Positions 25,371-28,110 of a stretch of 64,000 nucleotides of DNA are shown here, piece by piece. The notes under the pieces are model-generated. The model ran no database searches. It saw only the letters and a program-made list of their open reading frames with translations, and was not told the origin of the DNA. Within the stretch, counting starts at the first letter, position 1, and every line of letters starts with the position of its first letter. Made by a program: the position numbers and the translations under genes. This DNA comes from Candidatus Parcubacteria bacterium. Its GTDB lineage: Bacteria > Patescibacteriota > Minisyncoccia > Phycocordibacterales > CAIZLB01. The stretch lies in the NCBI GenBank assembly GCA_039795875.1, contig JBDKKY010000001.1, positions 750 through 64,749 of the forward strand, given 5' to 3'.

Positions 25371-25443
25371 TGCGCATGCTTGGGTTCGAACCAAGGACCT
25401 TTCGAGTATCAGTCGAATGCTCTACCAACTGAGCTACACGCGC
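25371..25443 (-). tRNA. tRNA-Ile (GAT)
   Basis: GCGCGTG acceptor, anticodon arm TTCGA-CTGATAC-TCGAA, T-arm CTTGG-TTCGAAC-CCAAG. Confidence 0.85.
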
Positions 25444-25669
25444 ATTATTCGTCTTCGTTCTCGGACCGCACGAAGCAGTCCTTCACTCATCCTCATAATG
25501 AAGAAGACAAGACATTCTCCGCGCTCCGACGCTTCACGATAGAAGCGCTGCGCGCATCGTCGTAAATGCCTACAGAGACGTGGACAATCTACAACGACGA
25601 ATAAACGATATTATACACAAAAACTGCCATTTGGCAATTTATTCTGATTTTAAATAGCTATTTTGGACC

Positions 25670-26272
25670 TTATTTAGCAACAGCTTTTTGTACGAAGAAC
25701 TTACCAGCGTCCTCCATTTCTGTCAAAGACTCACAGGCATTTGTTCCAGACAATCGGCCTGCATTTGTAGCAGTTGCCTTACCTCGTAGCTTAGGGTCAG
25801 ACTCTGTCGAACTTACAAGTTCACCCAATGAACCATATGTGTCAACTCGCTTCTTAATATACATCTCAACCGCAGTACGTGATTCTGCCCCACTGTCGGC
25901 AACAAAGACTTTGGTGTCTGATTTTGCGGGGAATGCCGGAGCTGACGCCGCATCTGTATACCAGGCAAATGTACATGAAGTATTTCTCTGTACTATGGCT
26001 GATCTACTATAATTACAAGCTGAACGCTCCATACATCCATCTCCACCTTGTCCTGGGACGTATCTACCTTGTCCTGGGACATATCCACCTTTTGTGACAT
26101 CACCTGATACAGCGCCTGCTGTAGGAGTTGTTGCAGTAGTAGGGTTATTTATCAATACTGCCTTAGTTGTGGCGGCTTGATTATCTTTATTGCTAATCGA
26201 TGTGCGTACACTGTAGACAATTGACGCTACAATAATTGCCAAAAGAACAACAATAGTTAATGTTTTTTTCAT
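25670..26272 (-). CDS. hypothetical signal-anchored secreted protein encoded in the 16S/tRNA-Ile spacer
   Basis: 200 aa; N-terminal TM LTIVVLLAIIVASIVY; contains a 21-nt tandem duplication encoding YVPGQG RYVPGQG. Confidence 0.5.
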   Translation of the reverse strand: MKKTLTIVVLLAIIVASIVYSVRTSISNKDNQAATTKAVLINNPTTATTPTAGAVSGDVTKGGYVPGQGRYVPGQGGDGCMERSACNYSRSAIVQRNTSCTFAWYTDAASAPAFPAKSDTKVFVADSGAESRTAVEMYIKKRVDTYGSLGELVSSTESDPKLRGKATATNAGRLSGTNACESLTEMEDAGKFFVQKAVAK

Positions 26273-26566
26273 ATACTAATATTGTATCACCTACTTCAAG
26301 AAAAAGAAAAAACCTTTATGAACATAATTCACACAGGTCTTTTCTCAACAAATAAGAATTTTCACAAATCAACGCTTGTTACAAGTTAAATAATTAAATC
26401 TATTATTTTGTTCTGTTTGGCCAGTCTTTCCTGGGGTCAAAATCTTTACGTGATTCCCACGCTCTAAATGCGACGAGTTAGAGTCTCGTTTATACAGTGC
26501 AAGCAAAGTATAAGAACGACCGCTATAAATTTTATACCCTCCCTAAAGAGGACATAAAACAGTTTT

Positions 26567-28110
26567 CACTTGAATAAATCCACGAACAGCTTCCGCTACC
26601 CGTGCCTTGTTACGACTTACTCCCTGTCACCAAGCTTACCGTAGTCCCACACATGGTGAGATATCGGGTACTCCTGGCTCCCTTGAGTTGACGGGCGGTG
26701 AGTACAAGACTTGAGAACGTATTCACCGCGGTATGTCTGACCCGCGATTACTAGCGATTCCAGCTTCACGAAGTCGAGTTGCAGACTTCGATCCGAACTG
26801 AGGATGGTTTTAAACGTTTTGCTCCGAGTCGCCTCATTGCGTCGCGTTGTACCACCCATTGTATTATGTGTGTAGCCCAAGATGTCAAAGGGACATGCGG
26901 ACCTGGCGTCATCCTCGCCTTCCTCCCAGCCTACAACTCACAAACACATATCTTTTACGATATCGTTTATGAACTTTAGGCTGGGCAGTCTCGTGTGACA
27001 CTTATAACACACGACGAGGGTTGCGTTCGTTACCCCACTGAAGGGAACAATTCAAACCACGAACTGACGACGGCCATGCATCACCTGCCTAACTGTCTTG
27101 CGAGGGTTCTAGTTTCTTAGAACTTTCAGTTAGGTGTCAAACCTTGGTAAGGTTCTTCGTTTACCTACGAATTAAACCACATAATCCACCGCTTGTGCAA
27201 GTCCCCGTCTATTCCTTTGAGTTTTAGCCTTGCGGCCGTACTACCCAGGCGGTACACTTATCGCGTTAGCTTAGTCTCACAGAGGGTCGATACTCCGTAA
27301 AACTAGTGTACATCGTTTAGGGCGTGGACTACTGGGGTATCTAATCCCATTCGCTACCCACGCTTTCGTGCTTCAATGTCAGGAATGTGCCAGTGTGCTG
27401 CCTTCGCTTTTGGTATTCCCCATGATATCAACGGATTTTACCCCTACTCCATGAGTTCTACACACCTCTCACATCCTCTAGCGATACCGTTTCTTATGCG
27501 AGTCCCCAGTTAAGCTGGGGGTTTTAACACAAGACTAATATCGCCATCTACGCACCCTTTACGCCCAATAATTCCGGATAACGCTTGGGGTACTCGTATT
27601 ACCGCTGCTGCTGGCACGAGTTTAGCAACCCCTTATTCATGAGGTACAATCAATAAACTTTTTCCCTCATAAAAGGTTTTTACATACCTAAGTACTTCAT
27701 CAACCACGCGGCGTCGCTCCATCAGACTTTCGTCCATTGTGGAAGATTCTCGACTGCAGCCACCCGTAGGTGTATGGGCCGTGTCTCAGTCCCATCGGTG
27801 AGGGTCAGCCTCTCAGCTCCTCTAGACGTCATTGCCTTGGTAGGCCATTACCCTACCAACTAGCTGATATCGTGCGGGCCCGTCCTGAAGCATAATGCCT
27901 TTAACAGCAAACTTTACTCCGTAGAGACCATCGAGTATTAGCATATCTTTCGATATGTTATTCTCGACTTCAGGGAAGGTACCCACATGTTACTACCTCG
28001 TCTGCCACTAAACATAACCTTGATATAATCTCAATATGTTTCGTTCGACTTGCATGCCTTATCCACGCCGCCAGCGTTCATCCTGAGCTAGGATCAAACT
28101 CTAATTAAAA
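26567..28110 (-). rRNA. rrs: 16S ribosomal RNA
   Basis: reverse complements of universal sites: AGAGTTTGATCCTAGCTCAG (28084-28103), GTGCCAGCAGCCGCGGTAATAC, a 1392-region variant and AAGTCGTAACAAGG; about 1.5 kb, no intron-sized insertion. Confidence 0.9.

Follow-up and report, generated by a model that had tools for sequence, protein, structure and literature searches.

We analyzed a 64,000-nt stretch of contig JBDKKY010000001.1 (68,148 bp; assembly GCA_039795875.1, Candidatus Parcubacteria bacterium), hereafter called the window, with a focus on the surroundings of its 16S rRNA gene. On the minus strand, the 16S gene is followed by an open reading frame (ORF) for a 200-aa protein, then by tRNA-Ile(GAT), a strong predicted terminator, and the C-terminal half of a transketolase gene. 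All of these elements had been listed in the original prediction, made from the sequence alone, and all were recovered, at positions that differ from those given there by between one base and a few dozen. In the order of transcription, the locus contains the following features (dG, free energy of folding or pairing).

28287 to 28314, minus strand: predicted 16S promoter, with −35 TTGACT (28314 to 28309), a 16-nt spacer, and −10 TATAAT (28292 to 28287); 11 of 12 matches in a consensus scan
28106 to 28197, minus strand: 16S leader with the 5′ strand of the processing helix; an invariant TTCTTTTGTTCTGTTTGAG adjoins the 16S 5′ end
26568 to 28109, minus strand: 16S rRNA gene, full length and without insertions (Rfam RF00177, 1350.5 bits, model positions 1 to 1533)
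26340 to 26567, minus strand: 16S 3′ trailer, with three to four hairpins ahead of the 3′ helix strand (26430 to 26340), which includes CAAACAGAACAAAATAA
26296 to 26346, minus strand: terminator-like hairpin (26346 to 26304) followed by CUUUUUCUU, the presumed end of the 16S unit
26273 to 26289, minus strand: predicted ORF promoter, an extended −10 box TGATACAAT (TG at 26289 to 26288, TACAAT at 26286 to 26281), 8 nt from the ATG
25670 to 26272, minus strand: 200-aa gene, an open reading frame with homologues
26038 to 26091, minus strand: in-frame 21-nt tandem duplication in the linker of the ORF (Tandem Repeats Finder, period 21, 2.6 copies, score 87)
25610 to 25640, minus strand: weak hairpin (25640 to 25621, dG −10 kcal/mol, z −2.6) past the ORF, overlapping the predicted tRNA-Ile promoter
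25444 to 25609, minus strand: tRNA-Ile leader of about 165 nt, with a 14-nt stem of 25604 to 25591 with 25458 to 25445 (inverted repeat I3, 86% complementary)
25370 to 25443, minus strand: tRNA-Ile(GAT) (ARAGORN; Rfam tRNA, 73.9 bits), CCA not encoded
25325 to 25372, minus strand: predicted intrinsic terminator after tRNA-Ile, a 13-bp A/T-flanked GC stem (25364 to 25335) and then Ts
24102 to 25112, minus strand: C-terminal half of transketolase (Pfam Transket_pyr, 1.1e-36; Transketolase_C, 3.2e-24)

The distance from the 16S 3′ end to tRNA-Ile is 1125 nt, and the ORF begins 296 nt past 16S. A search of Rfam at E ≤ 1 over positions 25000 to 28500 returned nothing beyond 16S, the tRNA, and one sub-threshold small RNA match 3′ of the tRNA. 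Rfam also gave no match to large-subunit or 5S rRNA anywhere in the window, which reaches 25.4 kb past 16S on the downstream side and 35.9 kb on the upstream side, no rRNA is found in the ~0.7 kb past one window end, and tRNA-Ala is absent among the 11 tRNAs called by ARAGORN within the 64 kb. The claims that no tRNA-Ala or 23S follows and that 16S is unlinked from 23S were thus borne out: within the window, the 16S 3′ end lies more than 1500 bp, the distance used by Brewer et al. to define unlinking, from the nearest 23S. Of the canonical rrn operon, only the first step is preserved, with tRNA-Ile(GAT) placed 3′ of 16S on the same strand; tRNA-Ala and 23S-5S do not come after it, either in the window or in any related locus.

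Relatives were collected with a pattern combining 16S helix 45 and the unusual 16S tail described below, yielding 14 species-representative loci, almost all labelled Candidate Phyla Radiation (CPR). A metagenome scan with a block of the 16S trailer yielded six further loci, of which four were kept; L018 and L021 were chance matches of the block inside AT-rich coding sequence (L and P numbers denote loci and homologous proteins, respectively). The gene order of the window recurs in other assemblies. L001, a separate Logan assembly (SRR35181295, 1209 bp), matches the window at 100% identity from helix 45 of 16S, across the ORF, and on into tRNA-Ile, and the diverged relative L002 (ERR10802361) has the 16S tail, spacer, orthologous ORF, and tRNA-Ile promoter block in the same order. 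The order is also found, with diverged sequence, in L025 (a 618-kb ENA contig) and L026 (a Logan contig), whose synteny matches that of the window over methyltransferase, tRNA-Thr, 16S, the orthologous ORF, tRNA-Ile, transketolase, pfkB, and pilin. In none of about 20 related lineages, whose available sequence past 16S reaches up to 13 kb, is 16S followed by 23S, 5S, or tRNA-Ala. The organization flagged as unusual in the original prediction is therefore real, but it is less unusual than was supposed, since these relatives share the lack of 23S after 16S. One of the collected contigs, L003 (JAYUTB010000010.1), is binned as “Spiroplasmataceae”; it has a CPR-type 16S tail, a sub-clade-B trailer, and tRNA-Ile, and it is probably a mis-binned Parcubacteria contig, with a 16S leader unlike all others.

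The comparison of spacers in related genomes, which had been proposed as a check, found tRNA-Ile(GAT) next after 16S in nearly all relatives (276 to 490 nt away in 16 cargo-free loci) and a variable content in between. The slot is occupied as follows.

Window (1125 nt), L002, and L025/L026: orthologues of the 200-aa gene
L014 (836 nt): an unrelated 138-aa ORF
L004 (4185 nt): a signal-peptide LamG protein, an 856-aa protein, and a PG_binding_1 protein
L009 (no tRNA-Ile within 7.9 kb): a WxLIP/LysM protein and a 1462-aa SdiA-regulated/DUF2341/LamG protein
L008, L016, L017, L019, L020, L022, and all of sub-clade B: empty

All cargo genes have the same orientation as 16S and are inserted past the processing helix but before the tRNA-Ile −35 box. 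The flanks can be nearly the same around different contents: L004 carries a trailer 95.5% identical to that of the window and a near-identical tRNA and terminator, with wholly different cargo, and the 16S genes of L025 (slot occupied) and L008 (slot empty) are 98.95% identical. No remnants of the 200-aa gene were detected by tblastn in the empty or differently filled slots. Orthologues at 34 to 46% identity share the slot in lineages whose 16S genes are ~96.5% identical, and the ORF does not appear to be a recent insertion. The suggestion of an insertion hotspot survives in part: the slot is variable, holding one of four unrelated cargo sets or none.

The 16S gene is enclosed by sequences that pair with each other. 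Upstream, TTGACTTTG...TATAAT is kept 200 to 260 nt 5′ of 16S in eight of nine relatives having upstream sequence. Downstream, an alignment of 16 loci contains a conserved trailer of ~215 nt, in which invariant blocks are split by hairpins with covarying stems. The leader block TTCTTTTGTTCTGTTTGAG is the reverse complement of CTCAAACAGAACAAAAGAA in the trailer, and the trailer end, CAAACAGAACAAAA(G/T)AA, is the reverse complement of TTCTTTTGTTCTGTTTG in the leader; the latter stands ~10 nt 5′ of AGAGTTTG at the 16S 5′ end, an arrangement shared by the window and eight of the nine relatives with leader sequence. RNAduplex pairing of leader positions −95 to −4 with trailer positions +139 to +229 gave a dG of −65.5 kcal/mol, and seven relatives gave values of −57 to −67 kcal/mol. 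When the invariant core was removed, the outer part of cognate pairs retained −38 (window), −42 (L025), and −35 kcal/mol (L008), whereas non-cognate leader/trailer pairs reached −20 to −24 kcal/mol, ~15 kcal/mol weaker. The unconstrained leader/trailer duplex has a dG of −92.7 kcal/mol, compared with a shuffle mean of −61.6 (standard deviation, 5.5). The two strands thus covary across the 1.5-kb gene between them and make up the classical pre-16S processing helix, an RNase III-type stem as found in rRNA precursors of bacteria. The helix closes ~230 nt past the 16S 3′ end, upstream of the ORF.

Just beyond, the hairpin at 26346 to 26304 has a dG of −19.4 kcal/mol (z −4.9; 0 of 200 shuffles as stable) and is conserved, with compensatory base changes, in both L002 and L008. 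A hairpin with a T-run is also found at the position equivalent to 26346 to 26296 in L007, L006, L017, L009, and L025. Two observations concern the flanks of 16S in L025 and L008. Their 16S genes are nearly identical, as noted above, yet the flanks differ, with non-cognate leader/trailer pairing ~15 to 20 kcal/mol weaker, and the L025 trailer resembles that of the window more than that of L008, a hint that recombination or gene conversion has affected the surroundings of 16S. On the other side of the gene, between tRNA-Thr(GGT) and the 16S promoter, the window has a solitary PemK/MazF-like toxin gene (28555 to 28962, minus strand; Pfam, 6.5e-08), with no obvious antitoxin ORF and no homologue in any fetched locus; L008 and L025 have ~370 nt of non-coding sequence at this site, which suggests a second lineage-specific insertion flanking 16S.

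The 16S tail after helix 45 reads GGATTTATTCAAG (26581 to 26569) and lacks the CCUCC core of the anti-Shine-Dalgarno (anti-SD) sequence; the same tail is present in the 14 species loci, the four metagenome loci, and L025/L026. A CCUCU hairpin ~25 nt past the tail was considered as a displaced anti-SD and rejected, because relatives keep the hairpin and not its sequence (CACCTGA/TCAGGTG, CCCC/GGGG). On the mRNA side, none of the 59 window ORFs has a Shine-Dalgarno (SD) 5-mer core at −20 to −4, compared with 3.5% of random positions, whereas 29 of the 59 have a −10-like hexamer ending 3 to 15 nt before the start (mode, 6 to 8), compared with 6.4% of random positions. The −10 box of the 200-aa gene, TGATACAAT, is conserved in L002, and the first cargo genes of L004, L014, and L025 likewise have a −10 box 7 to 9 nt before the ATG. 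Because the TGnTACAAT box lies 8 nt 5′ of the ATG, the mRNA of the ORF is predicted to be leaderless. Given that there is neither anti-SD nor SD and that gene starts are of the leaderless type, a 16S-ORF cotranscript would be an unlikely template for translation of the ORF.

These traits have published counterparts. A Pribnow box ~6 to 8 nt from the start of first operon genes defines the leaderless “group C” of GeneMarkS-2 (10.1101/193490). The genomes of that group (Actinobacteria, Deinococcus-Thermus) resemble the window in this distance between Pribnow box and start codon; however, they retain the anti-SD and SD sites for internal genes, and the lineage of the window has neither. Only 48% of Parcubacteria have CCUCCU in the 16S tail (Tsurumaki et al. 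2022, RNA 28:1041; PMC9297842), and the 16S tail of the window, without CCUCCU, is like that of the anti-SD-lacking subgroup described there. In the window, the mRNA side also becomes visible, as an absence of SD motifs and as −10 boxes 6 to 8 nt before starts; a term search of PMC9297842 found no mention of leaderless transcripts. Since loss of the anti-SD is already published for a Parcubacteria subgroup (PMC9297842), we treat it here as context and not as a discovery.

The tRNA-Ile gene is preceded by a promoter-like block of its own, with −35 TTGCCA (25637 to 25632), a 16-nt spacer, and −10 TATAAT (25615 to 25610) after TGTG (11 of 12 matches in the scan). The block AATTGCyAAA...TGTGTATAAT is kept in L002, L004, L008, L014, L016, L017, L020, and L022, with or without cargo, and AATTGCyAAA...TTTTGTGTATAAT is far better conserved than the adjacent 3′ end of the ORF. 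In L004, L008, and L025 the tRNA begins 13 to 20 nt past the −10 box. The terminator after tRNA-Ile has a dG of −26.9 kcal/mol (z −9.9; inverted repeat I2, 100% complementary); it is near-identical in L004, and equivalent hairpins occur in L008, L025, and L016. As a side observation, many relatives have a structured leader of ~90 nt before tRNA-Ile, TTTGATGAG...CGCAG-(AAATTTxC hairpin)-CGAGGAC...GAACGAA. It is found in L016, L014, L017, L020, L022, L007, L006, L013, and L015, is degenerate in the window (25444 to 25500), and is absent from L004, L008, and L025; it has no Rfam match at the gathering threshold.

Downstream, transketolase is the neighbor of tRNA-Ile in L025 as well, and L004 and L014 have ORFs antisense to transketolase, as at 24778 to 25122 of the window. 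The window gene is half of a split transketolase: only the C-terminal half (pyrimidine-binding and C-terminal domains) is encoded at 24102 to 25112 (minus strand), and the N-terminal half is not adjacent, with tRNA-Ile upstream and a convergent pfkB downstream. Between the tRNA-Ile terminator and transketolase lies a multi-hairpin stretch of ~190 nt (25135 to 25325, minus strand; dG −72.3 kcal/mol, z −4.75), which matches no Rfam family apart from one sub-threshold 21.5-bit match. After the tRNA, L004 shares only the first ~88 nt with the window, and L025 has ~60 nt at the position of 25135 to 25325. Farther away, a class II tRNA-Ser with a long variable arm was called at 63424 to 63511 (minus strand) with anticodon ACT (loop TTACTAA); serine tRNAs of bacteria do not usually have A34, and GCT would be expected for AGY codons.

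The complete coding sequence claimed between 16S and tRNA-Ile is confirmed by its homologues and substitution pattern. The N-terminal stretch LTIVVLLAIIVASIVYSV reads as strongly hydrophobic and is laid out as a membrane anchor, followed by a T/A/P/G-rich linker and a C-terminal domain with C80, C86, C100, and C180. P0002 is 46% identical over 97% of the ORF length, with in-frame indels, and P0004 and P0005 are 34% and 33% identical, respectively. Codon-aligned differences from L002 number 73, 68, and 110 at positions 1, 2, and 3, and 45 codons differ synonymously only; the ratio of nonsynonymous to synonymous rates (dN/dS) is 0.31 for the entire ORF and falls to 0.25 in the anchor and to 0.19 in the C-terminal domain. 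The GC content of the ORF is 43.4%, compared with a gene mean of 42.3%. An exhaustive profile search returned 45 proteins, six of them below 1e-10, and the family comprises ~12 representatives at the 50% clustering level; a 12-member profile run against a word-indexed database returned three proteins only, low-complexity words having probably saturated the candidate list. In the 12-member alignment (A3), C80, A85, C86, C100, A179, and C180 are invariant and K2, G79, Y88, P115, and G176 near-invariant. The short members (187 to 247 aa) have MKK and a hydrophobic N terminus, with a G-x-N-A-C motif near the C terminus, and the window ORF carries the family signature GC-x5-AC-x-Y ... C-x-[FY]-A-W-[FY]. 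The protein has no Pfam match, and an AlphaFold2 model built on a two-sequence alignment was unusable (predicted local distance difference test score, 39.7). Overall, the ORF is a real gene and not a chance frame, and its product is probably a membrane-anchored, extracytoplasmic, disulfide-containing protein, likely at the cell surface.

The tandem duplication noted in the original prediction was recovered at 26038 to 26091. Its full copies, 26042 to 26062 and 26063 to 26083, are identical at 19 of 21 positions and encode GYVPGQG and RYVPGQG; the duplication is shared by the identical contig L001 but missing from P0002, P0003, and P0004, and it is recent. Other members of the family stand at other sites: one between secY and adk in a ribosomal-protein operon, and P0005, in the L008 genome, between glyS and a permease gene. 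At this glyS/AI-2E-permease junction, the window (47920 to 49712, minus strand) has two unrelated ORFs (416 and 177 aa), and the L008 genome (L027, 6001 to 6579) has the four-Cys member P0005, with flanking proteins 71 to 84% identical. A Cys motif of ~30 residues (GC..xACNYD..A...C.Y; residues ~76 to 112 of the ORF) also occurs as 4 to 18 repeats in proteins of up to ~2000 aa; two of four such proteins scanned have extracellular-type domains (type IX secretion system sorting plus PKD-like in one, CBM plus Cu-binding_MopE in the other), and in the window ORF and the short members of the family the motif is without a Pfam match.

We read the locus, with a probability of roughly 0.7, as the fragmented rRNA locus of an anti-SD-less Parcubacteria lineage in which three co-oriented, separate transcription units stand in tandem. 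The foundations are gene order, homologies, conservation, and covariation, from which promoters, terminators, leaderless translation, surface location, and the direction of gain and loss are deduced. The first unit would be a monocistronic 16S gene with its own promoter, the leader/trailer helix presumably serving as substrate for pre-16S excision and the T-run hairpin coming after it. The second would be a lineage-restricted gene for a small, membrane-anchored four-cysteine protein, expressed from a leaderless mRNA like about half of the window genes. The third would be tRNA-Ile(GAT), with its own promoter and strong terminator, a likely relic of an ancestral 16S-tRNA-Ile-tRNA-Ala-23S operon whose 23S presumably resides elsewhere, outside the 64-kb window. 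After the operon broke up, genes would have been gained and lost in a permissive intergenic slot, which extends from the 16S helix/terminator to the tRNA-Ile −35 box and in related lineages is empty, holds orthologues, or holds unrelated promoter-bearing genes, mostly for secreted or wall-binding proteins. Tandem units are preferred over a coding spacer because the helix closes upstream of the ORF and is followed by the T-run hairpin, and because the ORF has a −10 box and the tRNA a promoter. The arrangement itself is real and ancient within the family, and it is a fairly ordinary variant of the known split-rRNA layout.

Several points weigh against this interpretation. The promoters and terminators are consensus or structure predictions backed by conservation, and the function and location of the protein are predicted from its hydrophobic N terminus and conserved Cys residues. 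The T-run hairpin might be part of a longer processing helix and not a terminator, since it pairs with the far leader in the −92.7 kcal/mol duplex, and because all units are co-oriented, transcription from the strong 16S promoter may continue into the ORF and tRNA-Ile. The variability of the slot may be no greater than the background turnover at other intergenic sites; the glyS/permease junction varies too. In L004, no obvious hairpin separates the 16S helix from the first cargo gene, a fact that also suits the alternative of a true internal transcribed spacer (ITS), in which 16S, the ORF, and tRNA-Ile would be one precursor from the 16S promoter, with mRNA and tRNA freed by processing. That the three genes are co-oriented within 2.8 kb agrees with such a precursor. 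Moreover, rRNA operons commonly carry antitermination, and the hairpin at 26346 to 26304 need not halt RNA polymerase. We nevertheless regard a single precursor as unlikely: the processing helix closes ahead of the ORF, with a conserved hairpin and T-run after it, conserved promoter-like blocks precede both the ORF and tRNA-Ile at suitable distances, and, with no anti-SD or SD, an AUG inside a long precursor would not have the 5′-terminal position on which leaderless initiation relies. The tRNA-Ile of Borrelia is likewise transcribed independently of 16S (PMC3037291). The original description of the spacer as an ITS hosting a coding sequence is, for these reasons of helix position and separate predicted promoters, not retained.

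The ORF might instead have been brought in by a tRNA-targeting integrative element or by an rRNA intron/homing-endonuclease cassette. Such an origin would fit the different slot contents of even close relatives, and elements of this kind are known to target tRNA genes as well as the rRNA genes of CPR bacteria. It is nonetheless improbable here, as Pfam detects no integrase, transposase, or endonuclease domain in the ORF or any cargo, and there are no flanking direct repeats, target-site duplications, or terminal repeats; the GC content of the ORF is typical of the genome. An uninterrupted 16S, aligning unbroken to model positions 1 to 1533 with the ORF outside it and devoid of a Pfam endonuclease domain, argues against a CPR rRNA intron or insertion, and an insert located 5′ of the tRNA and its promoter rather than at the tRNA 3′ end, with no integrase or flanking repeats, argues against a tRNA-targeted island. 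We see very little chance that the ORF is a fortuitous open frame in non-coding spacer. Its lack of Pfam, Rfam, or structural matches and the single homologue returned by the first protein search would be in keeping with that idea, but dN/dS, the third-position excess, the 45 synonymous-only codons, the in-frame indels, the four Cys residues invariant in 12 members, the 45 profile matches, and orthologues at the same position in three lineages all speak for a gene. An assembly artefact, a chimeric spacer fusing 16S to an unrelated tRNA-Ile/transketolase region, can practically be dismissed. rRNA genes are frequent break and misjoin points in metagenome assemblies, and the L004 contig does stop inside 16S; against this stand the full identity of L001 across helix 45, the ORF, and tRNA-Ile, the same order with diverged sequence in L002 and L025/L026, and 16S followed by tRNA-Ile in ~18 further loci. 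The misjoin in the spacer that the original prediction had named as its own refutation is thereby ruled out.

A more speculative extension, which we think rather improbable, is that the site downstream of 16S is more than a tolerant gap, namely, a preferred expression slot in which small cassettes that bring their own promoter and encode fast-evolving surface proteins are repeatedly gained, swapped, and lost, or that the four-Cys protein is tied to ribosome/translocon genes. The cassettes might profit from read-through or from the local environment of the strongest promoter of the cell, and they would include the four-Cys family, which is also placed at secY/adk and at glyS/permease upstream of metG. 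If true, such a slot would give leaderless CPR bacteria without an anti-SD a simple means of varying their surface.

Two practical consequences follow for surveys: 16S-23S amplicon or long-read “operon” methods cannot obtain linked 16S-ITS-23S reads from this Parcubacteria family, and the length of the 16S-tRNA-Ile spacer (276 to >7900 nt) is an unstable marker. The locus is also a compact example of anti-SD-less expression in which each unit, cargo included, would have its own −10 box near the start. No new mechanism is demonstrated, unlinked rRNA genes and anti-SD loss being already published for the group; the new items are descriptive, namely, the variable slot and an unnamed four-Cys family with a ~30-residue “GC...ACNYD...C.Y” motif.

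A literature search for protein genes in 16S-tRNA-Ile spacers matched mostly organelle papers. Besides the leaderless and anti-SD-lacking groups compared above, the closest known systems are three. Unlinked rRNA genes are a widespread and phylogenetically coherent trait, and Patescibacteria have been named as a clade that has them (Brewer et al., 10.1101/705046; ISME J 2020). Our locus agrees in that 16S and 23S are not co-located, and in none of the ~20 related lineages does 23S come after 16S. The passages of that study covered here classify genomes by 16S-23S distance and do not describe the surroundings of orphan 16S genes; relative to them, the present analysis maps the processing helix and adds that tRNA-Ile is retained with its own predicted promoter and that the slot in between varies in gene content. 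CPR rRNA genes are also known to carry ORF-containing insertions or introns (Brown et al. 2015, as cited in 10.1101/705046), which likewise tie coding sequence physically to a CPR rRNA gene, going by that citation; unlike them, the window ORF, which lacks an endonuclease domain, lies past the processing helix and 296 nt away from an intact 16S. In Borrelia burgdorferi, the order is 16S-tRNA-Ala ... tRNA-Ile ... 23S-5S-23S-5S, with tRNA-Ile a separate unit by reverse transcription-PCR (PMC3037291). As in the window, 16S stands apart from 23S, with tRNA-Ile as the separate unit between the two in Borrelia. Protein-coding genes are present in the Borrelia rRNA spacer as well. In Borrelia, however, 23S is only a few kb off and tRNA-Ala stays with 16S, whereas in the window it is tRNA-Ile that stays with 16S, while tRNA-Ala and 23S are >25 kb away or on another contig, and in the group to which the window belongs the intervening content varies between close relatives.

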